A stretch of 64,000 bases of DNA from contig MNIR01000083.1 in the NCBI GenBank assembly GCA_001919865.1, positions 6,216 through 70,215 of the forward strand. Reading direction: 5' to 3'. Origin of the DNA: Gemmatimonadetes bacterium 13_1_20CM_4_69_16 (GTDB lineage Bacteria > Gemmatimonadota > Gemmatimonadetes > Gemmatimonadales > GWC2-71-9). The translations under genes were made by a program, and so were the position numbers. Shown in pieces: positions 2,466-61,946 of the stretch (position 1 is its first letter; each line of letters opens with the position of its first letter). Under the pieces are notes generated by a model. That model saw nothing but the letters and a program-made list of their open reading frames with translations, had not been told where the DNA came from and did not search any database.

Positions 2466-3391
2466 TCGTCCACCACCACGACCCGCGGCTTCAAAACCTC
2501 GCCCTCCCACTCCGCCACCGCCACCAGCTGACCGTCCGCGAACAGGGCGACGGGGCTCGTGGCGCTCGGGATGCCTGCCCCCAATCCCGAGCCCCGAAGC
2601 CCGAGCCTCGCGGACACCGGCCGCCCGTGGATCACGGCGGCTCGGCCCGCTTGGTCGAGCTCCCGCCGCGGCAGCTCGGCCACCAGGACCGCCGGATCGC
2701 GCAGATCGGCCGGCGTCACCGCCTCGGGTGCCACGGCGTCGTCGAGTCGAAACGGCCCGACGCGCGTCCGCACCAACGTCGCGAGGTGCGCGCCGCACCC
2801 GAGCTCCTCGCCCAAGTCCCGCGCCAGGCCGCGCAGGTACGTCCCGGCGCTCACCGTGGCACGGAACCCGAGGTCGGGGGGCGCGAAGCTCGTGAGCGCG
2901 AACTCGCCGACCTCGACCCGCCGCGCCGGCAGCGTCACCGCCTCGCCCCGGCGCGCCCGGCGGTACGCCCGCTCGCCCTCCACCTTCACTGCCGAGTAGG
3001 CGGGCGGCCGCTGCTCGTAGGCACCGCGAAACCGCGACACCGCGGCCTCGACCCGCACCCGATCGAGCGATCGCCAGCCGTCCGAGGCGGCGAGCGTCGC
3101 CCCCGTGGCGTCGTCGGTGGACGTGGTCTCACCCAGGCGGATGACACCCTCGTACGCTTTGGCCCAGCCGGCGACGTAGGGCGCGAGCCGGGTGGCGCGT
3201 CCCACGATGACAACCAGCAGCCCCGAGGCAAACGGGTCGAGCGTTCCCAAGTGCCCCACCCGCCGGGTGGCGAGCGCGCGGCGCACCTGATCCACGATGT
3301 CGTGGGAGGTGGGGCCCCGCATCCCGTCCTTCCCCCCCGCCCCCGCCCCCCCCGGCCCTCCCCGCCCCCCCGGCTTCGCGACGAGTACCAC
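2462..3391 (-). CDS. truB: tRNA pseudouridine(55) synthase TruB
   Basis: Track ORF with motifs TSHDIV and HLGTLDPFASGLLVV (catalytic Asp). GTG start. Carries a Gly-rich insert in the N-terminal KPxGxTS motif. Confidence 0.85.
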   Translation of the reverse strand: MVLVAKPGGRGGPGGAGAGGKDGMRGPTSHDIVDQVRRALATRRVGHLGTLDPFASGLLVVIVGRATRLAPYVAGWAKAYEGVIRLGETTSTDDATGATLAASDGWRSLDRVRVEAAVSRFRGAYEQRPPAYSAVKVEGERAYRRARRGEAVTLPARRVEVGEFALTSFAPPDLGFRATVSAGTYLRGLARDLGEELGCGAHLATLVRTRVGPFRLDDAVAPEAVTPADLRDPAVLVAELPRRELDQAGRAAVIHGRPVSARLGLRGSGLGAGIPSATSPVALFADGQLVAVAEWEGEVLKPRVVVVDE

Positions 3392-3772: not shown

Positions 3773-4054
3773 TCACAAGTAGCTGGTGCTGGTGTCCACG
3801 ATGCGCGCGCCCGCCGCGCCTGCCACCAGGCGGTCGGCCTCCCGCAGCACGCTCTCGGCGTGACCCCGCTCGTTCGACACCACGCACACCGTCAGCTCGG
3901 CGCGCTGCCACAGGTCGTGGTGGGCCGTCTCCGCGGCCGACACGTTGAAGCGGTTGTGGAGCCGGTCCTTGAGGCTCTTCAAGACGTGGCGCTTGTCCTT
4001 GAGCGAGCGACTTCCCTCGAGATGCAGCTCCCAGGTCATCACCCCCACGACCAC
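3773..4054 (-). CDS. DUF503 family protein (YlxP-like)
   Basis: 93-aa track ORF directly after infB. The pattern WELHLEGSRSLKDKRHVLKSLKDRL is typical of DUF503 in infB operons. Confidence 0.7.
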   Translation of the reverse strand: MVVGVMTWELHLEGSRSLKDKRHVLKSLKDRLHNRFNVSAAETAHHDLWQRAELTVCVVSNERGHAESVLREADRLVAGAAGARIVDTSTSYL

Positions 4055-7009: not shown

Positions 7010-8403
7010 GCCGGCTGGGCGGACGGGTCGCCGCCCGCGCCCGGCTGCGCCGCCGGACCGGCCTCGCCTTGCGCGGCCCCCTCCCCCTCCCTCTCCGCCT
7101 CGTCCTCGCCGCCTTCTTCCATCATCTCGTTGAGGAAGGCCATCAGCTTGTCGGCGAGCTCCGGCGTCATCCCCGCGATCTTGTCCACGTCCTCGCGCTC
7201 CAGATCGAGGATGTCCTGCAGCGTCTTGTGGCCCGCCTGCGCCAGTACGTCCACCAGCTCGACCGGCAGGCCCTTCAGCTCACGCAGCGAGACCTTGGTC
7301 GCGGCCTCCTCCTCGGGGGGGAGCGGCGCGAACAGCGGCCCCTCGCCGCCGCGCTCCAGCCACTCGCGACTCGAGTACAGGTCGATCTTCCAGCCGGTGA
7401 GCTCGGAGGCGAGCCGGACGTTCTGGCCGTTGCGGCCGATGGCGAGCGACAGCTGGTCCTCGTCCACGATCGCTTGGATCGTCTTCGTGTCGGGGTCCGA
7501 GAAAACGCGTGCCACACGCGCGGGGGCGAGGGACAGCTTCGCGAACCGCTCGGGGTCGGGCGACCACGGCACGATGTCGATGCGCTCGCCGCCCAGCTCG
7601 TTCACCACGGCCTGCACGCGCGAGCCCTTGAGGCCCACGCAGGCGCCCACGGGGTCGATCGAATCGTCACGGGAGGAGACCGCGATCTTGGTGCGGCTCC
7701 CCGCCTCGCGGGCCGTGGCCCGGATCTCCACGATTCCCTGCTGGATCTCGGGCACCTCGAGCTTGAACAGCGCCTTCACGAACAGGGGGTCCGCACGCGA
7801 CAGGATGAGGCGCGGCCCCTTGGGGGTTTCCTCGATCCGCTTCAACACCGCGCGGATCGTGTCGCCCTGGTGGAAGTGCTCGCGGTGGTTCTGTTCGCGG
7901 TAGGGGATGATCGCCTCCGCCTCGCGGAACTTCGCGAGCATCACGACGATCTTGCCACGCTCGATCTGCTGCACCTCGCCCGAGAGCAGCTCGCCGACCT
8001 TGTCGGTGAACTCCTCGCGGATCCGGGCCCGCTCGCCTTCGCGCACGCGCTGAATGATGCGCTGCTTCGCCGCCTGCACCGCCGTGCGCCCGAACGCCTC
8101 GAAGGGCACTTCCTCCTCCAGCACGTCGCCGACTTGGAAGTCCGGGTCCTCGAAGCGCGCTTCCTCGAGCGCCACCTGCGAGCCGGGGTCCTCCACGGTC
8201 TCGACCACGGTGCGCAGCACGACGACCCGGATCGTCCCCTTCAGCTCGTCGATGCCGATCTCGGACCGCACGTTGGGGCCGTAGCGCTTCACCAGGGCCG
8301 CGTGCAGTCCGTCCTTCAGCAGGTCGAGCAGCTCCGCGCGCTCCAGCTGCTTCGTGTTGGTCAGCTCACGAATGGCTGATACGACGTCAGTTGTGTTCGT
8401 CAT
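7006..8403 (-). CDS. nusA: transcription termination/antitermination factor NusA
   Basis: 465-aa track ORF with S1 and KH regions (IDPVGACVGLKGSRVQAVVNELGGERIDIV, LAIGRNGQNVRLASELTGWKIDL) and an acidic C-terminal tail. Confidence 0.95.
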   Translation of the reverse strand: MTNTTDVVSAIRELTNTKQLERAELLDLLKDGLHAALVKRYGPNVRSEIGIDELKGTIRVVVLRTVVETVEDPGSQVALEEARFEDPDFQVGDVLEEEVPFEAFGRTAVQAAKQRIIQRVREGERARIREEFTDKVGELLSGEVQQIERGKIVVMLAKFREAEAIIPYREQNHREHFHQGDTIRAVLKRIEETPKGPRLILSRADPLFVKALFKLEVPEIQQGIVEIRATAREAGSRTKIAVSSRDDSIDPVGACVGLKGSRVQAVVNELGGERIDIVPWSPDPERFAKLSLAPARVARVFSDPDTKTIQAIVDEDQLSLAIGRNGQNVRLASELTGWKIDLYSSREWLERGGEGPLFAPLPPEEEAATKVSLRELKGLPVELVDVLAQAGHKTLQDILDLEREDVDKIAGMTPELADKLMAFLNEMMEEGGEDEAEREGEGAAQGEAGPAAQPGAGGDPSAQPA

Positions 8404-8407
8404 CTAT

Positions 8408-8492
8408 GTCGTCTTTCGTTCGCCGTTGTCCGTCGTCCAGCATCCGCGTCGCGTCACATTCCTCGGATCACGGATGACGAACGACGGATGAC
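8408..8492. repeat. inverted arrays of degenerate tandem heptamers in the rimP-nusA spacer
   Basis: Right arm GGATCAC GGATGAC GAACGAC GGATGAC (8465-8492). The left arm GTCGTCTTTCGTTCGCCGTTGTCCGTCGTCC (8408-8438) is its imperfect reverse complement. The spacer is about 26 nt. Confidence 0.6.
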
Positions 8493-8495
8493 GTG

Positions 8496-8954
8496 CTACC
8501 AATCCACCGCCAAACGCGCATCGCGAATCCCGGCGAGCGGCACCGGCCGGGGTGGCCCGCCCTCCGGCGCGAGCACCACCGTCGCCTCGTCGGGCACGGC
8601 GACGATACGCGCGCGCACCCGGCCCAGCCCCGCGACCGTCGCCCGCACTTCCTGGCCCACGAAGCGCACCCAGTGGCGGTGCCAGCGCAGCGGTCGCTCC
8701 AGCCCCGGGCTCGAGACCTCGAGCGCGTAGCGCGACCCCAGCGGCCCGCCCGCGTCGAGCCAGGCTTCCAACGCCCGGCTCGCCATCGCGCAGTCGTCGA
8801 CCGTCACACGCCGCGGCGGCTCGCCGGGCGGCCATTGGATGCGCACTTGAACGAGCGGCCGAGCTTGCGTGCCGCCGACACGGAGGTCGGCCAGTTCGAG
8901 GCCCACCGCAGCCAGCTGGGCCCGAAACGATTCGACGAGACTGTCGGAGAGCAT
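8496..8954 (-). CDS. rimP: ribosome maturation factor RimP
   Basis: 152-aa track ORF upstream of nusA. LEVSSPGLERPL motif and C-terminal Sm-like part. Confidence 0.85.
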   Translation of the reverse strand: MLSDSLVESFRAQLAAVGLELADLRVGGTQARPLVQVRIQWPPGEPPRRVTVDDCAMASRALEAWLDAGGPLGSRYALEVSSPGLERPLRWHRHWVRFVGQEVRATVAGLGRVRARIVAVPDEATVVLAPEGGPPRPVPLAGIRDARLAVDW

Positions 8955-16535: not shown

Positions 16536-16622
16536 CGCGGCTGAAGCCGCGGCTCGGCGCTGCCGCTGCAGCGGCCATGGGCCCGTTTACGGGCAGACGC
16601 CGAGCCGCGAGTTCACTCGCGC
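16536..16622. repeat. palindromic intercistronic element, copy 1 (gatC-gatA spacer)
   Basis: CGCGGCTGAAGCCGCGGCTCGGCGC ... GGCAGACGCCGAGCCGCGAGTTCACTCGCG. Both ends are almost identical to 61315-61391. Internal 12-bp stem CGCGGCTCGGCG/CGCCGAGCCGCG plus two terminal tetraloop hairpins. Confidence 0.75.
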
Positions 16623-30897: not shown

Positions 30898-31004
30898 ACT
30901 AGACGCACAGACGCGCAGCGGTTAACAGCAAACAGGGGCCGGAAGAACGTCCCGACCCCTGATGCCTGCTGCACCACTGTGCGTCTGTGCGTCGACGCGT
31001 CTAG
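30898..31004. repeat. inverted arrays of tandem octamers bracketing the groEL terminator
   Basis: Left CTAGACGC ACAGACGC GCAG (30899-30918). Right CTGTGCGT CTGTGCGT CGACGCGT CTAG (30977-31004), which is the reverse complement with one extra unit. Confidence 0.6.
30924..30961 (-). terminator. intrinsic terminator downstream of groEL
   Basis: The minus strand reads CAGGGGUCGGGA-CGUUC-UUCCGGCCCCUG (12-bp stem including wobble pairs), followed by UUUGCUGUU. Confidence 0.6.
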
Positions 31005-33109: not shown

Positions 33110-33574
33110 CTATGGGGGAGTGAGGGGTGGTCGTTGCGTCAGGGAATCGACGATCGCCCGGGCCCGTGCCTCGACCGTGCCCCCCAAGGAGTCGAGCGGC
33201 GCCGACACCGCTGCCACAATGCTCCCGGTCCGGGTGTCGGCCAGGCGGACGTACAGCCAGATCGGGGCGCCGGGCTCGGGGTCACGCTGCGTGAACGACA
33301 GCACATACGCAGTGGCGGAACCGCCGCCTTGCACGGTAGTGCGGACCGTATACCCCCGCCGCCTGAGCCCGCGGCCGATCTCCCGGCTCAGCGAGTCGTC
33401 CCGGCTGACGAGGATGTCGTAGCTCGTGACCGACACGGGAGCGCGGTAGCCGGCAGCGGGGGCACACGAAACGAGAACTGCGAGACACGATGGCAAGACG
33501 GCACGTTGCCCGAATAGCGCGACGCCGAGCGCCACACTGGCAACGTGCCGTCCTGCCGTCGTGTAACGCTTCAC
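33110..33574 (-). CDS. lipoprotein, unknown function
   Basis: 154-aa track ORF with signal and lipobox ...LAVLVSCAP. ATGA-type overlap with the upstream NlpC/P60 gene. Confidence 0.45.
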   Translation of the reverse strand: MKRYTTAGRHVASVALGVALFGQRAVLPSCLAVLVSCAPAAGYRAPVSVTSYDILVSRDDSLSREIGRGLRRRGYTVRTTVQGGGSATAYVLSFTQRDPEPGAPIWLYVRLADTRTGSIVAAVSAPLDSLGGTVEARARAIVDSLTQRPPLTPP

Positions 33575-38158: not shown

Positions 38159-38765
38159 GGCCCTCGCGCACCCCCTCCGAGAGCGCCGGCTCGAGCCCGC
38201 CGATCGAGACCAGCGCGGGGACGAGCCGGTCCAGCAGGTCCAGGCGGCGCACCTGTGGGAGGCGCTCCTTCAGGGCCATGGCGGGACGCCCCACGGCAGC
38301 CGGCACGGTGTTGCACACGTTGACACCGACGCCCACCGCGAGCCACTGCAGCCGATCTCCCTGCCAACGGCCCTCGCACAGAATGCCGGCGATCTTGCGG
38401 TCGTCGAGCAGCACGTCGTTGGGCCACTTGAGCCGCGTCCCCGGCGCGCCGAGCAGAGCGTCAACGGCGTCGGCGACGGCCAAGCCGGCCCGGATCGCCA
38501 CCGCTCCCACCACCGAATGCGCGGGCCGGAGCAGCAGGCCGAGCCAGACCCCTCCGACGGGCGAATGCCAGGTGCGGCCGTCGCGACCACGGCCGGCGGT
38601 CTGCTCTTCGGCAATCACGGCCGTTCCCGCGGGCGCGCCATGCGTGCCCAGGTCGTGGATCGCGTCCAGTGTCGAGCCGAGCCGGCGAAACAGCCCGCAC
38701 TGCGGCACGCTCCAGCGGGCGGCGAGCTCCGTCGCCGCCACGCCGTCGAGCGTCAGGCGCGCCAC
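38142..38765 (-). CDS. birA: biotin--[acetyl-CoA-carboxylase] ligase, short form
   Basis: Track ORF 38142..39527 trimmed to the GTG at 38765, overlapping the uppP end. LGSTLD, EEQTAGRGRDGRTWHSP, KWPNDVLL, GILCE, GVGVNV. Only about 57 residues follow the GVGVNV motif. Confidence 0.7.
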   Translation of the reverse strand: MARLTLDGVAATELAARWSVPQCGLFRRLGSTLDAIHDLGTHGAPAGTAVIAEEQTAGRGRDGRTWHSPVGGVWLGLLLRPAHSVVGAVAIRAGLAVADAVDALLGAPGTRLKWPNDVLLDDRKIAGILCEGRWQGDRLQWLAVGVGVNVCNTVPAAVGRPAMALKERLPQVRRLDLLDRLVPALVSIGGLEPALSEGVREGHVELA

Positions 38766-39535: not shown

Positions 39536-40356
39536 GCGACCCGCCCCGCCACCAGCGCGACCATGCCCACTATCATCGCTCCCTTGAGAAGTGAGCTGTT
39601 GCGACCCATTCGTCCCGTGATGAGCCGGCTCGCGACGAGCAGCACGGCGAGCTGCGCGAACACCGCGACGACGTAGTACGCCCCGCGGTAGCGCGCGGCG
39701 AACGGCAGCGCGAGACTGAGCGGCACGAACGCGAGTCCCAGCGCCGCGGCGACGAGCGCCGCCCCGCGCGACCCGATGGCGACGGGGAGGGTGCGGCGGC
39801 CGATCACGCGATCGCCCGGTTCATCGTCCACGTCCTTCACGATCTCGCGCATGAGATGGAGCCACGCGGCGAGCGTCCAGGGCACGAGCCCGCTCGCCGG
39901 CCGCCCGACCGCGAGCGCACCGTACAGGAGCGGCAGGCCGGCCACGAGCGCCACGGCCGCGTTCCCCGCGAATCCGCGACGCTTCAGTACGGGGGAATAC
40001 AGCATCATCACGCCAAGCGCGCCGAGCCCCACGAACAGCGCGGTGCCGCTGACCAGCGCCGCCGCGCCCAGCCCGACGAGCGTCCCGTCGACGACGCACA
40101 GGTCGGCCGTCCCGCGCGCGAGGCGACCGGCGGCGAGCGGCCGCCCGGAGGGACCGCGGTTCACGCGGTCGGCCGCGGCGTCCCAGATATCGTTCACCGC
40201 GTTTCCGGCGGCGCCGAATCCCACCGCCGCGACCGCCGCGAACAGCAGCAGCTTGGGGGTCGCGAGCGCGCCGAGCGCGATCCACCCCCCGGCAAGCACG
40301 CCGGCGGCAGCAACGAGGAGATTATGGGCGCGGATCAGCCGCAGGACGTCAATCAC
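39532..40356 (-). CDS. UbiA-family prenyltransferase, DGGGP-synthase-like
   Basis: 274-aa track ORF. NAVNDIWDAAADRVN....RPLAAG and KDVDDEPGDRVIGRRTLPV Asp-rich motifs. Confidence 0.65.
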   Translation of the reverse strand: MIDVLRLIRAHNLLVAAAGVLAGGWIALGALATPKLLLFAAVAAVGFGAAGNAVNDIWDAAADRVNRGPSGRPLAAGRLARGTADLCVVDGTLVGLGAAALVSGTALFVGLGALGVMMLYSPVLKRRGFAGNAAVALVAGLPLLYGALAVGRPASGLVPWTLAAWLHLMREIVKDVDDEPGDRVIGRRTLPVAIGSRGAALVAAALGLAFVPLSLALPFAARYRGAYYVVAVFAQLAVLLVASRLITGRMGRNSSLLKGAMIVGMVALVAGRVA

Positions 40357-41476
40357 CGAGCACGTCCCGATAAAGACCCTCGTAGCGGGGCACGACGCGC
40401 TCCGTGGAGAACTCGGCCGCCCGCGCTACGGCGGCCCGGCGCATGCGCTCGTGGGTCGTGGCATCCTTGAGCAGGGCCACGGCGCGCTCGACCATCTCGT
40501 CCACCCCGCCGACCGGCGCCAGATACCCCGTCTCGCCGTCCACCACCACCTCCGGGAGGCCGCCCTGGCGGGTCGCCACGACGGGGACTCCGCACGCCAT
40601 CGCCTCGAGCGCCGACAACCCGAACGACTCGCTCTCCGACGGCAGCAGGAACAGATCCCCACCTTGCAGCAGCTCGGCGACCCGGTCGACCTTGCCGAGG
40701 AAGCGCACGTCGGCACGCAGCTTCAACCGATGCACCTCCTGCTCGGCCAAGTCCCGCTCGGGCCCGTCACCCGCGAGGACGAGGGTCGCTGGGAGCGCGC
40801 GCCGCACTCCCGCGAACACCTTGATCACATCTGCGATCCGCTTGACCGGACGAAAGTTGGACACGTGGAGCAGGATCTTGTGGTCCGCCGGGGCCAGCGA
40901 GCGGCGGCACGAGCTGTCCGTCGGAGGGTGGAACTCGGCGGCCGAGACGAAGTTGGGAATTACGCGGACGTCGCATCCGGCGCACCCGAAGGCGCGATAG
41001 GTCTCGTCCCGGAGGTACTCCGACACCGCGGTCACGCGGTCGGACTGCTCGATCGAGAACTTGGTGATCGTGAAGTACGACGGGTCTTGGCCGACGAGCG
41101 TGATGTCGGTGCCGTGCAGCGTCGTCACGACTTTGAGGTCGCGCTCGCTCTTGAGCATCTGCTTGGCGAGCCACGCCGTCGCGGCGTGCGGGATCGCATA
41201 ATGTACGTGCATCAGCTGGAGCTCTTCGCGCAGGGCGACCTCGTGCTGCTTCACCGCCAGCGCCAGCGCGTAGGGGGACTGCTCGAACAGCGGATACTCG
41301 GCGGGAACCACTTCGTGGAAAGTGACGCGCTCGGCGAAGCCACCCCGCAGCCGAAACGGGCTGGCGTACGAAATGATGTGGACCTCGTGCCCCCGCCGGC
41401 CGAGCTCTAGCCCCAACTCGGTCGCGACCGCGCCGGAGCCGCCGTAGGTGGGGTAGCAGGTGATGCCGATGCGCAC
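40349..41476 (-). CDS. bshA: GT4 glycosyltransferase, BshA-like (N-acetyl-alpha-D-glucosaminyl L-malate synthase)
   Basis: 375-aa track ORF. The N-terminus MRIGITCYPTYGGSGAVATELGLELGRRGHEVHIISY closely mirrors Bacillus BshA. C-terminal E-x7-E region FGLSALEAMACGVPVV. Confidence 0.7.
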   Translation of the reverse strand: MRIGITCYPTYGGSGAVATELGLELGRRGHEVHIISYASPFRLRGGFAERVTFHEVVPAEYPLFEQSPYALALAVKQHEVALREELQLMHVHYAIPHAATAWLAKQMLKSERDLKVVTTLHGTDITLVGQDPSYFTITKFSIEQSDRVTAVSEYLRDETYRAFGCAGCDVRVIPNFVSAAEFHPPTDSSCRRSLAPADHKILLHVSNFRPVKRIADVIKVFAGVRRALPATLVLAGDGPERDLAEQEVHRLKLRADVRFLGKVDRVAELLQGGDLFLLPSESESFGLSALEAMACGVPVVATRQGGLPEVVVDGETGYLAPVGGVDEMVERAVALLKDATTHERMRRAAVARAAEFSTERVVPRYEGLYRDVLGD

Positions 41477-41484
41477 GGGAGATT

Positions 41485-41621
41485 GTCAGACGTCAGACAT
41501 CAGACGTCAGACTGAACCGAACGCCACCGGGCTGCGATGGTCGCAGCCAGTCCCTCAGCGGGCTCCGTCGCATCGAGTGTCCACACTTCATCTGCCTGAC
41601 GTCTGACGTCTGATGTCTGAC
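41485..41621. repeat. inverted arrays of tandem heptamers at the miaA 3' end
   Basis: GTCAGAC GTCAGAC ATCAGAC GTCAGAC (41485-41512) and GCCTGAC GTCTGAC GTCTGAT GTCTGAC (41594-41621), separated by an 81-nt spacer. Confidence 0.8.
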
Positions 41622-42468
41622 CGCGCAGTTGATTTCGAAACCACGTCTCCTGTCGCTTCGCGTAGCGTCGCGTGGCGGCCAGGACGGCATCCCGCAGGTC
41701 GCGCTCGGCGAGCCGACCTTGCAACATCGCGACCACTTCACGGTATCCTACGCCGTCCAGCCCTGGGGCGTGCGGCGCTACTCCGTCGGCCAGCACGCCG
41801 CGCACCTCCTCTATCAGTCCCCCATCCAGCATGCGATCCACGCGCTGGGCAATGCGCCGCTGCAGCGCGTCGCGCGGCAGCGTGAGATGAATGTACCACG
41901 GCCGCATCACCCCGCTCTCGCGTGCTTCCCGCTGCCACCACGACAGCGACCGGCCCGTGAGCAGCGCCACCTCGATCGCGCGAGCGGCGCGCTGGCGGCC
42001 CCCGCCCGCGAAGCGTCGGTCCAGTCGCGCCGCCCAATGGGCGAGCGGGGCCGCGCCGAGCAACCCGGCCCAGGCGCGGAGCCGCTCGCGGCGCGCGTAA
42101 TCGAGCGGCGGCTCGCGGAACAGACCTTCGGCCAAGGCGCGGATGTAGAACCCGGTTCCCCCGACCACCACGGGCTCGCGCCCCTCCGCGCGCACCCTGG
42201 CGAGCCACCCGCTCGCGTCGCGAGCGAACCGTCCGGCGCTGTAGCGCTCCCCCGGGTCGATCAAGTCGATCCCGAGATGCGGCACCCGGGTGAGCTGGGC
42301 CGGTTCGGGTTTCGCGGTGCCGATATTGAGCCGCCGGTACACCTGACGGGCGTCCGCGCCGATGACGGAGATGGGCTCGAGCGCTGCCCAGGCGACCGCG
42401 ACGGCGGTCTTACCGACGCCCGTAGGGCCGACGAGAACGGGGACCAGGGGGCGGTCAGCTCCGCCCAA
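41500..42468 (-). CDS. miaA: tRNA dimethylallyltransferase
   Basis: 322-aa track ORF. GPTGVGKTAVA, IVGGTGFY, RRYAKRQETWFRN. Confidence 0.85.
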   Translation of the reverse strand: MGGADRPLVPVLVGPTGVGKTAVAVAWAALEPISVIGADARQVYRRLNIGTAKPEPAQLTRVPHLGIDLIDPGERYSAGRFARDASGWLARVRAEGREPVVVGGTGFYIRALAEGLFREPPLDYARRERLRAWAGLLGAAPLAHWAARLDRRFAGGGRQRAARAIEVALLTGRSLSWWQREARESGVMRPWYIHLTLPRDALQRRIAQRVDRMLDGGLIEEVRGVLADGVAPHAPGLDGVGYREVVAMLQGRLAERDLRDAVLAATRRYAKRQETWFRNQLRGQTSDVRRQADEVWTLDATEPAEGLAATIAARWRSVQSDV

Positions 42469-44137
42469 ATCTCCGCTCCAGCTCGCCCTTCGGCAGCTGC
42501 ACGATGGTGGGCCGCCCGTGCACGTCGTGCGCGGGGAGCGACGCCGTGAGCAGCCGGCCCACGAGGTCGCGCATCTCCGCCAGCTCGAGGTGCTGTCCCG
42601 CCTTGATCGCCGCCCGACAGGCGAACATCGCTCCGAAGCGCTCGAGCCGGTTCGCGAGGCCCCCCCCCCCGGACCGGCCGCCCGCGAGGTCCGCCACGAG
42701 CTCCTGGAGGCAGCGCGCGGCGTCGAAGCGCGGATGCGGGTTGGGCGCCGTATGCACCACCACGGCCCGCCCGGAGAACGGCTCGATCTCGTATCCCACT
42801 CGCCCCAACAGCTCGCGGTGGGAGTCGATCGCGTCCAGCTCGGGCGGCGCGAACTGGAGCGTGAGGGGCAGGAGCAGGCGCTGGGCCGGGGCGCCGTCGC
42901 CCGTGAGCTGGCGCATCACTGTTTCGTACAGCACCCGCTCGTGCGCCGAGTGTTGGTCCACGATCGCTATCCCCTGGGCGGTCTGGAACAGGATGTAGGT
43001 GTCGAACACTTGGAGCAGAGATGGGGCTCGGGGCTCGGGACTCGGGGGTCGGGAGTCCGCCGCAAATAGGTCGAGGGGCACAGCAACGCCGTTCCAGGAC
43101 ACCCGATCCCCGAGCCCCGAGTCCCCAGCCCCAAGCGGCGCAGCCGCGACCAGCGGTCCCAGGGCCCGCCGCACCGCCTCCTCCACGACCTTTTCCACGA
43201 AGAACTTCTCGCGGAACCGTACCTCGAGCTTCGCCGGATGGACGTTCACGTCCACGGCGTCGCCCGGCAGGTCGAGAAACAGGACCAGCGACGGCCGGTC
43301 GCCGGGCGCGAGGGTCGATCGGTAGCCGGCTTCCGCTGCGCGTACGATGAACGGATCGCGGATCGGGCGACCGCGCACGAACACGTAGCCCTTGCGGCCC
43401 GCCGGCCTCGCCTGCGCGGGGCGTTGCGCGAAGCCGCGCACTTCGAGCGGCCCCTCGCAATGGGCGACCGGGAGCAGGGTGTCCACGACCTCGCTGCCCC
43501 AGAGGGCGGCCAACCGCTCGAGCGGCCCATCGGCGGGTGGCACGTCGAGCAGGGCGCGGTCGTCGCTCGTGAGCGTGAACGCGATGTCGGGACGGGTCAG
43601 GGCAAGGACGCTGAGCGCTTCGACGACCGCGCGAGTCTCCGTCGCCTGGGCGCGCAAGAACTTCCGCCGGGCGGGCGTATTGAAGAACAACGCGCGCACC
43701 GTCACCGTCGTCCCGCGCTGCCGCACCGCATCCTCCACCGCCTCACGCTTTCCCCCCACGACGCGGATCCGCGTGCCGGAACGGCCGTCGGGGGAGGTCT
43801 CGAGCTCGAAGCGCGCCACGGAGGCGATCGCCGGGAGCGCCTCGCCCCGGAAACCGAACGTCGCTACTCCGATCAAGTCCGTGGCATCGCGGATCTTGCT
43901 CGTGGCGTGGCGCGACAGCGCGAGCTCGGCATCCACGCGGCTCATCCCCTCGCCGTCGTCGCTCACGCGGATGAGTGTCTTGCCGCCGTCTTCCATCTCG
44001 ACCCGGATGGCCCGGGCGCCGGCGTCGAGCGCGTTCTCGACCAGCTCCTTCACGACCGAGGCTGGCCGCTCGACCACCTCACCCGCCGCGATCTGATCGG
44101 CGACCTGAGGCGCGAGCACCGCGACCTTCGCCGTCAC
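42455..44137 (-). CDS. mutL: DNA mismatch repair protein MutL
   Basis: Track ORF 42455..44341 trimmed to the GTG at 44137 (GTGA overlap). QIAAGEVVERPASVVKELVENALDAG, DDGEGM, C-terminal DQHSAHERVLYE. Confidence 0.9.
   Translation of the reverse strand: MTAKVAVLAPQVADQIAAGEVVERPASVVKELVENALDAGARAIRVEMEDGGKTLIRVSDDGEGMSRVDAELALSRHATSKIRDATDLIGVATFGFRGEALPAIASVARFELETSPDGRSGTRIRVVGGKREAVEDAVRQRGTTVTVRALFFNTPARRKFLRAQATETRAVVEALSVLALTRPDIAFTLTSDDRALLDVPPADGPLERLAALWGSEVVDTLLPVAHCEGPLEVRGFAQRPAQARPAGRKGYVFVRGRPIRDPFIVRAAEAGYRSTLAPGDRPSLVLFLDLPGDAVDVNVHPAKLEVRFREKFFVEKVVEEAVRRALGPLVAAAPLGAGDSGLGDRVSWNGVAVPLDLFAADSRPPSPEPRAPSLLQVFDTYILFQTAQGIAIVDQHSAHERVLYETVMRQLTGDGAPAQRLLLPLTLQFAPPELDAIDSHRELLGRVGYEIEPFSGRAVVVHTAPNPHPRFDAARCLQELVADLAGGRSGGGGLANRLERFGAMFACRAAIKAGQHLELAEMRDLVGRLLTASLPAHDVHGRPTIVQLPKGELERRFGRS
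43023..43132. repeat. inverted arrays of tandem heptamers inside the mutL linker
   Basis: GGGGCTC GGGGCTC GGGACTC GGGGGTC GGGAGTC (43023-43057) and GACACCC GATCCCC GAGCCCC GAGTCCC CAGCCCC (43098-43132), with a 40-nt spacer. Confidence 0.8.
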
Positions 44138-46479
44138 AGCGGCAGCACTTCCGTCGCGAGGACCCAGCCGTGCACGCCATCCTGACGCCTCACCTCGAGC
44201 CAGGCGCCCGTGCGGCGTTGGATCACGAGCGCCGCGCCTGCCTCGAGCGTGCTGCCGGCGCTCGCGGCGCCATACGGCGCGACGCGCACCGCGGTCCCGG
44301 CGCTCGCCACCACCGCGACGGGGCGGACGCGTTGCCGCCACTCACGCAAGGCGAGTCCGGCGCAGCCCGCGGTGACCAGACCGAGCAGGATCACCACGAT
44401 CCCCCGCCGGCGGCTCAGCACCGCGAGCCACAGGACCACCCATCCGGCGGCCCCGGCCAGCGCCCACTCGGCGGGCGTGGCAACGCCGGTGGCGAGCAGC
44501 GGGTCGCTCGCCGCATCGGGCGGCGGCAGGAACTGCCGCGCCCGCCGCACCAGGGGCGCGCGCGGCGCCAACCGGGCGGCGCGCGTCCACGCGGCCATCG
44601 CCTTGCCGTCCGCCCCGGCGCGATACAGCGTGGCGCCGAGGTTGTACCAGTGGGCCGCGACGCGCGGCTGCGCCGCGGCGCGAGCCGCGAAGGAATCCGC
44701 CGCGGCGCGCAGTGCCCCGACCTCGTACAGCGCCTCGGCGCTCGGCGCTTGTGCCGCGACGGCTCGCGGCGTGACGAGCGCCAGGAGACCCAGCGCCACC
44801 AGCAGCCGGCGACGCCGGCTCGCGCGCGGCTCCGCCCCCAGCGCCTTGAGCACCTGTGTGAGCTCGGCCGACAGCTCGACCGCATCGCCCAGCCCTTGCG
44901 GCCCGTAGCGGGCAGCGCGCAGCCGATCGCGCAGCCGCATCACGTGATCCGCCACGGCACTCTCTACGCCCGCGGCGCGCAGTGCGCGGGCGAGGCCATC
45001 GCCGTCGCGTGCCACGGGATCGGGCACGTGGCTCGCCAGCAGCCCGAGGAACTCCCGTTCCAGCCGCCCCAGGCGCGACAGCGGCGGCGCGTCGGGCTCC
45101 TCGGTGGAGGCAGCGCCCCAGCGCGCAGCCCGACGCCGCCGCAGCCACACGAGCAGCGGGGGCCCGACCAGCAGCGCCGCCCACCCCAGGGGAAACAGCT
45201 GGGCGGCGATCGCGTCCACCCAGGCTTCGCCCCTCGACCGGTCGAGGGGCGGCAGCGGGCGCGCCGCCCTGGGCTCCGCACCCTGAGCCACGGCGAGCGG
45301 GCGCGGCGCCGCGCGAGCGGCCGTGTAGGCGCCGGCCGTGAGATCGTAGTAGGTGTAACGCACCTCGGGCAGTAGGAAGGAGCCCGCGGAGTCCGCCACG
45401 ACGAGGTAGTGGAACGTTTTGCTCCCCGCCATCCTGCCGCCACGCGGCTCGACCCGCACGGTCGCCTCCCCCGGATAGGCACGGAACCCGACGGGCCAGT
45501 GGATCACGGGCTCCGGCCAGAGGGCCACGTTGCCCACGCCCGAGACCGTGGCAGTCGCGTCCAACGGCTCCCCCACCCGAGCTTCGGTCGGCTGGACGGC
45601 CACCTCGAGCGCGAGCTCCTGGGCCGTCACGCGCCGATCGTCGGCGCTGCGGTCGGCGCCGGGCAGCGGCAGCACGGTGACGAGCACTGAGTCGCTCTTC
45701 AGGAAGTAGCGCTCTTCGCGGCTGAAGAACGAGAACGTCACGGGGACGCCGTACTCGACCGTCGCGGTCGGGATCGTCACCCGGCCCGCCACCAGCGGAA
45801 ACACGACCTGGTGAGCGACGTACAGATCCATCCAGCCGCCCCGCACGAGCCGCGAGGCGACCACGTCACTGGGGGCCGCGCCGGGATACGACCACACGCC
45901 CTCGGGAGTCTGCAACGTGAGAATCGGGGCCCGGCGCAATCGCGTGCGCAGCGAGCGGGGGAACCACGCCGCGGCGAGCACGTCGAGCTGCGCGCCCGCC
46001 AGCACTGTGTCGCTCGGGAGGATCACCGCCAGGACGACGCGATCGTTACGCGCCGGCGGTGCGGCGGCGGCGATCAGCCGGCGCGCCGGCGGGCTCAGCG
46101 CCGCGGCGACCCCGGTCGCCGCGCTGTCGACCGCGATTGCGATCGCTTCGGTGGCCACGGTCCGCGCAGCTTGACGCGCCCGCACCGGGCCGATCACGAG
46201 AGTCCCCGCCCGCTCGGCCCGTAACCGCAGCTCGCGGGTCGTCGTCCGGGTCGGCCCGAGCGTCCCTTCGAGCGAGACTTCGGTGACCTCGCGGGAGCCC
46301 ACGATCGCAAACCCGGTCAGCGCGGGCAGCGTGAGGCCGACCGGCTCCGCCGAGCGGGTGCGCGCCCGGACGGTGAGGGTCAGCTCCTCGCCGGTGGCGA
46401 GCCGGACGCGATCCACCCGCGCCTCCAGGTTCAGCGGCGGTCCTTGCAGGGCGACGAGCAACCAGAGGGCGCCCCTCAC
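44134..46479 (-). CDS. BatD-like protein fused to a BatE-like TPR/TM/SH3 module
   Basis: 781-aa track ORF. N-terminal BatD-type repeated beta domains, a TM segment, TPR-like AHWYNLGATLYRAGADGKAMAAW, a TM segment, and a C-terminal SH3b-like AWLEVRRQDGVHGWV. Confidence 0.65.
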   Translation of the reverse strand: MRGALWLLVALQGPPLNLEARVDRVRLATGEELTLTVRARTRSAEPVGLTLPALTGFAIVGSREVTEVSLEGTLGPTRTTTRELRLRAERAGTLVIGPVRARQAARTVATEAIAIAVDSAATGVAAALSPPARRLIAAAAPPARNDRVVLAVILPSDTVLAGAQLDVLAAAWFPRSLRTRLRRAPILTLQTPEGVWSYPGAAPSDVVASRLVRGGWMDLYVAHQVVFPLVAGRVTIPTATVEYGVPVTFSFFSREERYFLKSDSVLVTVLPLPGADRSADDRRVTAQELALEVAVQPTEARVGEPLDATATVSGVGNVALWPEPVIHWPVGFRAYPGEATVRVEPRGGRMAGSKTFHYLVVADSAGSFLLPEVRYTYYDLTAGAYTAARAAPRPLAVAQGAEPRAARPLPPLDRSRGEAWVDAIAAQLFPLGWAALLVGPPLLVWLRRRRAARWGAASTEEPDAPPLSRLGRLEREFLGLLASHVPDPVARDGDGLARALRAAGVESAVADHVMRLRDRLRAARYGPQGLGDAVELSAELTQVLKALGAEPRASRRRRLLVALGLLALVTPRAVAAQAPSAEALYEVGALRAAADSFAARAAAQPRVAAHWYNLGATLYRAGADGKAMAAWTRAARLAPRAPLVRRARQFLPPPDAASDPLLATGVATPAEWALAGAAGWVVLWLAVLSRRRGIVVILLGLVTAGCAGLALREWRQRVRPVAVVASAGTAVRVAPYGAASAGSTLEAGAALVIQRRTGAWLEVRRQDGVHGWVLATEVLPL

Positions 46480-61297: not shown

Positions 61298-61314
61298 GCG
61301 GCCGCTCCTCGGTC

Positions 61315-61391
61315 CGCGGCTGAAGCCGCGACTCGGCGCCTACGGCTGAAGCCGCTTGAGCGGCAGGCGCCGAGCCGCGAGTTCACTCGCG
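61315..61391. repeat. palindromic intercistronic element, copy 2 (pyrR-pyrB spacer)
   Basis: CGCGGCTGAAGCCGCGACTCGGCGC ... GGCAGGCGCCGAGCCGCGAGTTCACTCGCG. Same ends and same orientation as 16536-16622, with a different central part. Confidence 0.75.
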
Positions 61392-61394
61392 GAT

Positions 61395-61946
61395 TCACGA
61401 GCGACCCCTCGCCACCAGCTCCACCAGATCCTTCCCATCGATCTCCTCTACCAGCACGTCCACGCGCTCCCCGCTGTTCACCTTCACCTGCTTGCCGACA
61501 ATGTCCGGTTGGATCGGCAGCTCGCGACCGCCGCGGTCGACGAGCACGCACAGCGAAATCCGTTCGGGGCGCCCAAAGTCCGCGAGCTCGTCGAGCGCGG
61601 CCCGAACGGTGCGGCCGGTGTACAGCACGTCGTCCACGATCACCACGTGCTTGCCGGTGAGATCGCCGGGGATGCGGGTCTCTCCGATGACCGGCTTCGG
61701 GCCCACGGTCTGGAGGTCGTCGCGATACAGGGTGATGTCGAGGGCGCCGCGGGGGACGACCACGCCCTCGTTCGTCTCGATCTGCTTGGCGATCCGTTCG
61801 GCGAGCTCCACGCCGCGCCGCTGGATGCCGATCAGGACCAGCTGCTCGGTCCCGTGCGCCAGCTCGAGCACCTCGACCGCCATACGCTGAAGCGCCCGCG
61901 ACAAGGCACGGGCGTCCAGGATGGTCGTGCGCTCGGGCCGGCTCAT
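61395..61946 (-). CDS. pyrR: bifunctional pyr operon regulator / uracil phosphoribosyltransferase PyrR
   Basis: Track ORF 61395..62243 trimmed to the ATG at 61946. LIGIQRRGV, PRPP loop VVIVDDVLYTGRTVRAAL. Confidence 0.9.
   Translation of the reverse strand: MSRPERTTILDARALSRALQRMAVEVLELAHGTEQLVLIGIQRRGVELAERIAKQIETNEGVVVPRGALDITLYRDDLQTVGPKPVIGETRIPGDLTGKHVVIVDDVLYTGRTVRAALDELADFGRPERISLCVLVDRGGRELPIQPDIVGKQVKVNSGERVDVLVEEIDGKDLVELVARGRS

Follow-up and report, generated by a model that had tools for sequence, protein, structure and literature searches.

Inverted pairs of tandem heptamer arrays at the miaA-bshA boundary and at other sites in Gemmatimonadales

Among the long simple-sequence repeats of many bacteria, heptamers exceed expectation the most, and their excess has been attributed to polymerase slippage or to the polymerase footprint (PMC4692102, PMC4679880). 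Xanthomonas genomes contain 70-75 pairs of convergent GGGAATC arrays each, mostly of four units (Rehm et al. 2015, PMC4692102). These pairs are situated between co-directional open reading frames (ORFs), near stop codons, and their arrays differ in length and sequence between close relatives while the single-or-paired type is retained; the heptamer repeat of Nostoc is GGGGAYT (PMC4692102). Here we analyse a pair of inverted heptamer arrays at the boundary of the genes miaA and bshA, found in a 64,000-nt stretch of DNA (the window) from Gemmatimonadetes bacterium 13_1_20CM_4_69_16 (contig MNIR01000083.1), together with similar pairs in other Gemmatimonadales. With a probability of roughly 0.55, we propose that it is a local, hairpin-capable pair that has arisen in place, and that its arms are kept complementary by processes acting on DNA and not by selection for an RNA helix.

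The preliminary description of this site knew of no element class with such a design, but the convergent pairs of Xanthomonas had already been described (PMC4692102). They are the closest described class, followed by the short tandemly repeated repetitive sequences (STRRs) of cyanobacteria. Tandem 7-nt units with a preference for four, and a second, complementary array nearby, are found here as well. The 33 pairs detected in 1.3 Mb of Gemmatimonadales DNA also resemble those of Xanthomonas in their mostly co-directional flanks, although members in coding regions are commoner here, and many Gemmatimonadales units have the form GGGANNC (GGGAGAC, GGGATGC, GGGAAAC). Xanthomonas employs essentially one unit genome-wide, whereas the present units are site-specific, with four different ones in the 64-kb window (GTCAGAC, GGGGCTC, CGGATGA and GACGCACA) and at least 10 at one orthologous site. 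The single G-rich consensus of Xanthomonas, GGGNATC, is able to form a G-quadruplex; no such consensus is shared by the pairs described here. Many 5' arms do read (GGGNNNN)4, but GTCAGAC, GTCATCC, ATCGGCT and other units do not, and since GTCAGAC has no G-tract, G-quadruplex formation cannot be the common denominator and was rejected as a common cause. Paired heptamer repeats, known from Xanthomonas and cyanobacteria, are extended by our results to an uncultivated order of soil bacteria. Properties not reported before include many site-specific units per genome, in-frame residence in conserved genes and their proteins, unit-level concerted evolution of the arms, and a copy number policed by the reading frame; neither unit-level co-variation of arms nor hypervariable islands have been reported for Xanthomonas.

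Tandem heptamers of the STRR type were reportedly described in cyanobacteria by Mazel and colleagues in 1990. Vioque is said to have reported in 1997 that STRRs occur in helix P12 of RNase P RNA, where they reportedly lengthen the helix and where closely related strains are said to carry unrelated heptamers. Apart from the tandem heptamers as such, this reported turnover of units in one place resembles the situation in miaA, a comparison that is a lead and not a test. STRRs differ in that they belong to another phylum, have AT-richer units and reside in an RNA gene rather than in an ORF.

Rickettsia palindromic elements (RPEs), to which the site had been likened, are dispersed, conserved families of 100-150 bp that bring their own peptide. 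The analogy is sound in one respect, as in both cases palindromic DNA is tolerated in frame in permissive parts of housekeeping proteins (here those encoded by miaA and mutL). It fails in another: RPEs are dispersed copies of one sequence, whereas here the arms are simple tandem repeats of site-specific units, the enclosed peptide is the host's own and there is no dispersed family. Identity of the heptamer pairs with RPEs, repetitive extragenic palindromic sequences (REPs), MITEs (miniature inverted-repeat transposable elements), terminators, invertons or an Rfam family was rejected by membership tests.

The array pair and its distribution

The genes mutL (42455..44341; TIGR00585), miaA (41500..42468; tRNA dimethylallyltransferase, 322 aa; TIGR00174, 196 bits) and bshA (40349..41476; N-acetylglucosaminyl L-malate synthase with a GTG start; TIGR03999, 518 bits) are all encoded by the minus strand of the window. 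On this sense strand, the 5' arm of the pair is the right array (41594..41621), which reads GCCTGAC GTCTGAC GTCTGAT GTCTGAC on the plus strand and GTCAGAC ATCAGAC GTCAGAC GTCAGGC on the sense strand. The 3' arm is the left array (41485..41512), with GTCAGAC GTCAGAC ATCAGAC GTCAGAC on the plus strand and GTCTGAC GTCTGAT GTCTGAC GTCTGAC on the sense strand. The 81-nt spacer between them (41513..41593, minus strand) is, by comparison with orthologues, host coding sequence, namely the last conserved MiaA segment ADEVWTLDATEPAEGLAATIAARWRSV. The arms are reverse-complementary in 25/28 positions, or 21/21 when slipped by one unit; our own count gave 25/30. An inverted-repeat search reported a match of 31 nt at 87% and, for the arms slipped by one unit, one of 21 nt at 100%. 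The several possible pairing registers proposed earlier are confirmed. Both arrays were also reported by Tandem Repeats Finder, with period 7, 4.0 and 3.7 copies, and scores of 49 and 45.

The arrays bracket the final 27 codons of miaA, the product of which ends ...RGQTSDVRRQADEVWTLDATEPAEGLAATIAARWRSVQSDV*. The 5' arm codes for an inserted peptide, GQTSDVRRQ, located between WFRNQLR and the conserved VWTLDAT; the match to the TIGR00174 profile stops just ahead of it, at MiaA residue 282. The last codons (QSDV) and the stop codon (41500-41502) are both supplied by the 3' arm, the left array. Eight nucleotides separate this arm from the bshA GTG (41474-41476), with no Shine-Dalgarno-like sequence in this gap. 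Direct reading thus reproduced the letters, coordinates and spacer length given in the preliminary description, and its further statements, that miaA reads through both arrays to a stop codon in the left one, 8 nt from the start of bshA, and that the arrays flank host sequence, proved equally accurate: the VWTLDAT...RW tail forming the spacer is present in all orthologues, with or without arrays. The earlier account of the site is correct in every detail. As regards annotation, peptides such as QTSDVRRQ, GPGDGRRE and SPVSPLPSP in MiaA and MutL are not motifs of the proteins but arise as by-products of nucleotide repeats.

The window is ~99.9% identical to the Gemmatimonadales metagenome-assembled genome from soil GCA_003220805.1 and to five further independent assemblies. 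All six of these independent public assemblies contain an identical 221-nt segment, and exact copies of the MiaA protein are indexed in 57 assembly blocks; the arrays of the window are therefore not an assembly artefact. One 321-aa MiaA-like protein (P0020) has its last ~75 residues in an alternative frame (KVGSPSATCGM...RHQTSDVRQMKCGH...SLTSDV) that corresponds to the window ORF 41493..41741. Owing to the heptamer periodicity, TSDV is once more the end of this protein, which is either a frameshifted allele or a sequencing error.

An enrichment of inverted arrays over shuffled sequence, proposed as a check of the preliminary description, was found in 1.30 Mb of related DNA, comprising the window and 80 loci of other species fetched through MiaA. 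Arrays were defined by period 7 and at least 3 copies, and partners by reverse complementarity within 160 nt. Such a partner accompanied 48/125 period-7 arrays, compared with 0/125 for reverse-only and direct partners, 0/463 for inverted partners of period-6 arrays, and no inverted heptamer pair in five Markov-1 replicates of 1.3 Mb. Chance is excluded as the origin of the pairs. The enrichment is confined to arrays of period 7 (and 8) and to partners in reverse-complement orientation. Merging left 33 pairs, spread across Gemmatimonadales, whose stems measure 18-34 bp and whose loops span 14-131 nt; some of them are octamer pairs and one is a nonamer pair. They are located in tight gene junctions, terminator flanks and disordered protein segments, many beginning at a stop codon and finishing at a start codon, and their spacers hold host features of any sort: a coding tail, a terminator, or nothing.

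Homologues of MiaA contain two variable stretches, always at the same two places, and the variable peptides resemble translated complementary heptamers (HPSSVIRRP with TDDGRRMTE; GPGDGRRE with SPVSPLPSP). DNA of 18 species representatives and 80 metagenome contigs bears this out; ~95 orthologous loci have arrays at both miaA positions, with at least 10 unit families in the same register. The units include GTCAGAC, GTCAGCC, GTCATCC, GTCAGTC, ATCGGCT, GGGAGAC, GGGATGC, GGGAAAC, GGGAGCA, GTGCGCC and others, and steps of 1-2 substitutions link the families, as in the series from GTCAGAC through GGGAGAC to GGGATGC or GGGAAAC. The 3' arm is the complement of the unit of its own locus; the distance between the units of both arms is 0-1 in 77/88 loci.

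Array-free orthologues lack the ~9 residues of the 5'-arm peptide and keep the VWTLDAT...RW tail. In distant Gemmatimonadales (MiaA identity <=66%) the arrays are absent, the motif is WFRHQLxGxxVxTLDAT, and the miaA stop codon overlaps the bshA start (ATGA or TGATG). The miaA pair is therefore a lineage-specific gain.

Junctions of miaA and bshA with single or non-complementary arrays were also seen: (CAGTCGC)3 followed by (ATAGCCC)3 in L042, a (CCCCCAA)-type array alone in L046 and a short remnant in L039. These may be decayed or half-formed pairs. A Gemmatimonadales-type mutL-miaA-bshA locus with arrays and a MiaA identity of 77% occurs in a contig binned as "Thermoplasmatota archaeon" (L009, DASYRW010000035.1), the archaeal label being probably a binning error.

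Complementarity of the arms on the level of DNA or RNA

The most serious alternative to our proposal, unlikely as we consider it, is that complementary arms are maintained by selection acting on the mutL-miaA-bshA mRNA, in which a helix of 21-28 bp would enclose the miaA stop codon and abut the bshA start. Unwinding of such a helix by ribosomes might enforce the coupling of bshA translation, or the helix might be a site for RNase III or a block to 3' exonucleases like the REP stabilisers. The predicted fold of the miaA pair is strong (-88 kcal/mol, z = -5.4), and the long-range RNA stem implied by the preliminary description is to that extent thermodynamically plausible. RNAalifold recovers the arm-arm helix from an alignment of 78 sequences. 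Along the 21-bp helix 83.6% of cells pair, as against 58.1 ± 0.9% in shuffled alignments and 34-46% with the partner shifted by 1-3 columns. Compensatory changes have altered both sides in 21/21 stem pairs, with a covariation score of 0.567 versus 0.193. Genomic placement favours the RNA helix too. In nearly all loci the 3' arm stops 0-10 nt short of the bshA start, where it replaces the ancestral overlap of stop and start and abuts a start without a Shine-Dalgarno sequence; the ancestral overlap implies coupled translation. Several distant lineages have independently gained other pairs exactly at the miaA-bshA junction, and both flanking coding stretches, their direction assigned by a codon-phase direction test, are co-directional in 27/33 pairs.

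Signatures specific to RNA are nevertheless missing. An RNA helix should tolerate G·U and avoid A·C, yet in 65 non-redundant miaA cassettes, for which the direction of transcription is known, mismatches comprised 48 G·U, 47 A·C and 89 of the transversion type, and at 28 other pairs oriented by their flanking genes 16 G·U and 18 A·C. No G·U excess was thus present in either set and the mismatches are strand-symmetric, which argues against an RNA helix. Nor are variant units mirrored between the arms: the match sum of 1319 equals that of permuted unit orders (1319.0 ± 6.9, P = 0.52). Complementarity is therefore held per unit and not per stem pair in a fixed register, and the mirrored variants suggested by the 21/21 register of the window were rejected by this permutation test, the register being one lucky alignment. 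Selection for a helix would, moreover, leave the tandem periodicity and the homogeneity of units unexplained. Some pairs are located within the mutL linker or between convergent or divergent genes, and one natural contig, L136, has arms that do not match. No intrinsic terminator was found within 41300-41800, terminator and promoter scans of the miaA site were both negative, and Rfam 15 gave 0 matches at the gathering threshold in the whole 64-kb window. Of the features expected of a structured cis-regulatory RNA, compensatory changes are present, whereas a preference of G·U over A·C, compensation in a fixed register and a match to a curated family are absent. From these alignments, the complementarity of the arms looks like a DNA-level property, not an RNA-selected one. 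The site is a natural case in which covariation passes the tests for RNA structure (RNAalifold, shuffles and slid controls) without RNA-specific signatures, which is relevant to genome mining for structured RNAs.

The contig L136 also deserves a note of its own. At 3814-3968 it combines a 5' arm of GGGAAAC type with a 3' arm of GCTCCCC type, and its spacer is unlike that of either parental type. The contig is a recombinant that arose naturally inside the cassette, or else it is chimeric.

Copy numbers of the units point to slippage. In the GTCAGAC family, the 5' arm, which lies within the ORF, has 4 units in 22/24 distinct loci, whereas the 3' arm, which continues past its own TGA, varies from 1 to 6 units. 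Loci of the GGGAGAC family, in which the ORF passes through the 3' arm to an ATGA junction, have 4 units in this arm in 16/16. From a unit number that is fixed in the ORF and variable past the stop codon, it follows that slippage still goes on and that selection on the frame filters it. The homogeneity of units over all eight copies, combined with drift between lineages, is a hallmark of concerted evolution.

We propose the following course of events for a pair arisen in place. Replication slippage would create the arrays and add or remove 7-nt units. Non-reciprocal copying within and between the inverted arms, by template switching or by repair in hairpin or quasi-palindrome intermediates and in any register, would spread new unit variants through both arms. 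The outcome would be concerted evolution, in which the unit drifts by lineage and the arms remain complementary. Purifying selection would leave pairs only where they do little harm, that is, in tight cistron junctions, flanks of terminator hairpins and disordered or terminal protein segments, and would fix the unit number inside ORFs. The pair in miaA would have been absorbed into the frame, its 5' arm becoming a loop insert of ~9 residues and its 3' arm supplying the C-terminal tail, the stop codon (in the GTCAGAC family) and the 5' flank of the bshA start. Hairpin-prone DNA would also be a hotspot of breakage and recombination, whose divergent core can be exchanged only as a block; this is the most likely cause of the instability described below. 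Any effect on the mutL-miaA-bshA transcript would be a consequence of the matching arms and not the reason for them, though a stem of 21-28 bp beside the bshA start could alter coupling or stability.

A precedent for the copying step reportedly exists in the work of Ripley and Lovett on Escherichia coli, where template switching in quasi-palindromes is said to let one arm of an imperfect inverted repeat template changes in the other. This would be a strand-symmetric route to co-variation of arms at the DNA level, free of selection on RNA. It differs from the present case in that it was reportedly described for single mutational events in laboratory reporters and not as the long-term driver of a repeat class.

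Several points weigh against our proposal. Inter-arm template switching or conversion is an indirect conclusion, drawn from unit-level concerted evolution. How the first inverted copy came to be laid down ~100 nt away, across essential coding sequence, is not accounted for by the model. The miaA pair persists over deep divergence (62-100% MiaA identity), and this persistence, along with the repeated pairs at the miaA-bshA junction of other lineages, could mean that the structure is useful there. Bulged RNA pairings may be overlooked by our analysis, which used ungapped registers, and the comparative data consist entirely of short-read metagenome assemblies. Finally, the block replacement described below, with its bimodal identity and shared alleles, is not predicted by slippage and conversion alone and needs a component of recombination.

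Proposed in situ origin and possible exchange between genomes

A second alternative, which we hold to be improbable, regards the pairs as MITE- or REP-like insertions with tandem-heptamer terminal inverted repeats, mobilised in trans (for example by a REP-associated tyrosine transposase, RAYT), entering at gene junctions and duplicating their target. Evidence for it comes from the mutL-miaA junction, where a pair of ~100 nt at the mutL stop and miaA start is present in some contigs and precisely absent from others (L154 ~2141-2239 vs L158; L141 1280-1378 vs L140), half-deleted in L130, or swapped. In near-identical contigs, the empty site reads CCTGAA/TGCGGTGAC and keeps one AATGCGG, and the filled site reads CCTGA(ATGCGGA)4-43 nt-(TTCCGCA)4CTCTTGCGGTGAC, with a 5-nt direct repeat, TGCGG, at its ends. 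Two different elements even occupy this junction in near-identical genomes (L102 478-636 vs L103 952-1105), an octamer GACGCCAC element standing in place of the ATGCGGA pair. The window itself has the empty, overlapping form (42455-42468).

The same sites speak against insertion. The apparent target duplication, TGCGG, is the repeat unit itself, and the comparison of empty with filled sites thus identifies the ATGCGGA unit as a copy of a native heptamer; in L030, similarly, a 5' arm grows from the final miaA codons ERAGS*. In a dispersal survey of 1.7 Mb, of which 64 kb come from the window's own genome, heptamer arrays (GTCAGAC, ATGCGGA, GGGGCTC, GGGATGC and others) were each found at their own orthologous site: GTCAGAC, GGGATGC and similar units at the miaA site only, ATGCGGA at the mutL-miaA junction only, and GGGGCTC in the MutL linker in 45/46 matches. 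Spacers share nothing with each other, being host coding sequence or host terminators. At miaA the arms would amount to two separate insertions around 27 conserved codons, which one insertion event cannot produce. No transposase was identified, though no systematic search for one was made. In comparison with MITEs, inverted ends are present, but the TSD-like TGCGG (TSD, target site duplication) seen at one site is the repeat unit and there is no shared internal sequence. Dispersal of heptamer units in the manner of MITEs or REPs was accordingly rejected, with each unit confined to one site and only octamers dispersed.

REPs are multi-copy families of conserved sequence with a cognate RAYT transposase and are not tandem heptamers. 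The pairs share with REPs, REP doublets (REPINs) and bacterial interspersed mosaic elements (BIMEs) the hairpin-forming inverted arrangement at operon junctions or after stop codons, possible roles in mRNA stability and a strain-variable presence. They differ from them by the absence, within the DNA surveyed for dispersal, of many near-identical copies per genome, their units being site-specific. Nearer to this class than the heptamer pairs is a family of octamer hairpins, in which GACGCCAC repeats are followed by a conserved inner GTTGCAYG. It occupies at least 5 unrelated sites in related genomes (L010 2419-2512; L017 2400-2464 and 18072-18149; L103 ~990-1080), and the groEL pair of the window (30900-31004) resembles it, a point in favour of mobility. 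Judged by its distribution, the octamer family, unlike the heptamer pairs, behaves as a dispersed, possibly mobile element and may be truly REP-like.

The array sites are unstable. Pairs of contigs that are 98-100% identical over 1.5 kb upstream and at least 0.8 kb downstream differ by 30-50% from arm to arm (~200 nt), including non-synonymous changes in the spacer (for example L133/L140, L130/L157, L101/L110 and L108/L123). Where both flanks are at least 97% identical (16 locus pairs), the segment is 49-70% identical in 10 and at least 94% in 6. Two or more cassette alleles are present in 7/10 flank clusters, and each of 13 spacer types is shared by more than one flank background. Segments are sometimes more similar than their flanks (e.g. 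0.90-0.93 vs 0.77-0.83), the overall correlation of flank and segment identity being weak (r = 0.33). Breakpoints fall about 10-40 nt beyond the arms, in the stretches that encode KRQETWF and MRIGITCYPTYGG, both ultra-conserved. When the gaps separating colinear alignments with at least 96% identity were searched without bias, 18 islands of divergence or indels emerged; at least 15 are located in or next to array sites, namely the miaA cassette, the mutL-miaA junction and the MutL linker. Independent segregation is seen for these three sites, all of which lie within 1.7 kb. Outside this pattern are a 48-nt deletion in bshA (two pairs) and, in L104, a deletion of the bshA 5' end that adjoins the 3' arm. 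Strong divergence within kilobases of otherwise identical DNA is restricted to the array sites, which are therefore useful as strain markers and are possibly hotspots of recombination or breakage.

Local hypermutation was rejected as the source of the islands, given that segment identity is bimodal, some segments are more similar than their flanks and alleles recur across backgrounds. The islands fit block replacement by homologous recombination, a process common in the meadow-soil populations concerned (PMC7305173). Chimeric short-read assembly is an unlikely cause, as several assemblers and projects yielded the cassettes and these are coherent ORFs whose arms match.

That the inverted pairs mark, and may cause, exchangeable micro-cassettes is a speculative idea to which we assign little weight. 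Each cassette, such as the last 27 miaA codons with both arrays, would be a bounded segment swapped as a block between genomes otherwise 97-100% identical. If so, housekeeping genes would carry deeply diverged alleles that segregate independently at each array site. Should the hairpin trigger the exchange, by structure-specific breakage and short-patch recombination with foreign DNA, the pairs would constitute an undescribed class of recombination hotspot, defined by structure and periodicity and not by sequence, and a cautionary case of perfect "RNA-like" covariation made wholly at the DNA level.

A stronger form of this idea, that the arrays are structure-specific recombination or break signals through which the bounded segment is actively exchanged, so yielding hypervariable islands within housekeeping genes, appears more doubtful still. 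The bimodal identity, recurring alleles, segments more similar than their flanks, close breakpoints and independent segregation are all in its favour. The same pattern, however, would be given by ordinary homologous recombination anchored in the ultra-conserved flanks; chimeric assembly through conserved 21-23-mers is possible, no recombinase is implicated, and the breakpoints are not at a fixed nucleotide. An intragenic inverton, in which a recombinase flips the segment to give an alternative MiaA C-terminus, has repeats of the typical length (21-31 nt) around a short in-frame segment to recommend it, but was rejected as highly implausible, as the spacer encodes the tail motif VWTLDAT in one and the same orientation in 101/101 assembled loci in which this motif anchor was found, and the tandem periodicity would be unexplained.

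Other pairs and repeats in the window

The preliminary description listed three more sites in the window with the same design and other units. They are real, though of uneven strength. One pair, of GGGGCTC/GAGCCCC heptamers (arms 43022-43053 and 43102-43136, minus strand; repeat and inverted-repeat searches), lies in frame in the disordered MutL linker, where it encodes ...GDSGLGD...SRPPSPEPRAPS. Its fold is predicted at -81.4 kcal/mol (z = -6.0) and it is confined to a subclade. The linker, by our own motif-bounded count, has 84 residues here and 85-91 in array-free orthologues. In one contig (L097 ~2500 vs L099 939-1007) a 69-nt deletion from the (CCCCCGA)4 arm of this linker pair removes the conserved MutL motif LLQVFDTYLLFQ, which means that mutL is broken or that the assembly is in error at this repeat.

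The next pair is composed of octamers, GACGCACA (arms 30900-30919 and 30976-31004, minus strand; repeat and inverted-repeat searches; fold z = -8.7). It begins 4 nt past the groEL stop codon and surrounds a terminator-like hairpin with a T-run (30961->30933), the pair itself not being a terminator. The last pair has degenerate CGGATGA-type units (arms ~8425-8452 and ~8464-8493, minus strand; repeat searches; fold z = -2.2) and fills the space from the rimP stop (8496-8498) to the nusA start (8401-8403).

Repeats of other kinds are present as well. Two inverted repeats (16536-16621 and 61300-61406) share the sequence CGCGGCTGAAGCCGCG...CGCCGAGCCGCGAGTTCACTCGCG and appear to be members of another dispersed palindrome family, of REP-like kind, that has no relation to the heptamer pairs. 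A near-perfect long hairpin at 33480-33569, with 41-nt arms 80% complementary and an 8-nt loop, has no tandem periodicity, and a C-rich tract of 40 nt at 3328-3371 (CCCCGCCCC-like) was reported with periods 1, 9, 10 and 15. At ~38166-38174, the window is without ~119 nt that are found in six public assemblies (L001-L006, 14305-14424) otherwise 99.8-99.9% identical to it; this deletion, whose length is not divisible by three, is bounded by short CGGGG repeats, at the 3' end of a biotin-protein-ligase-like gene.

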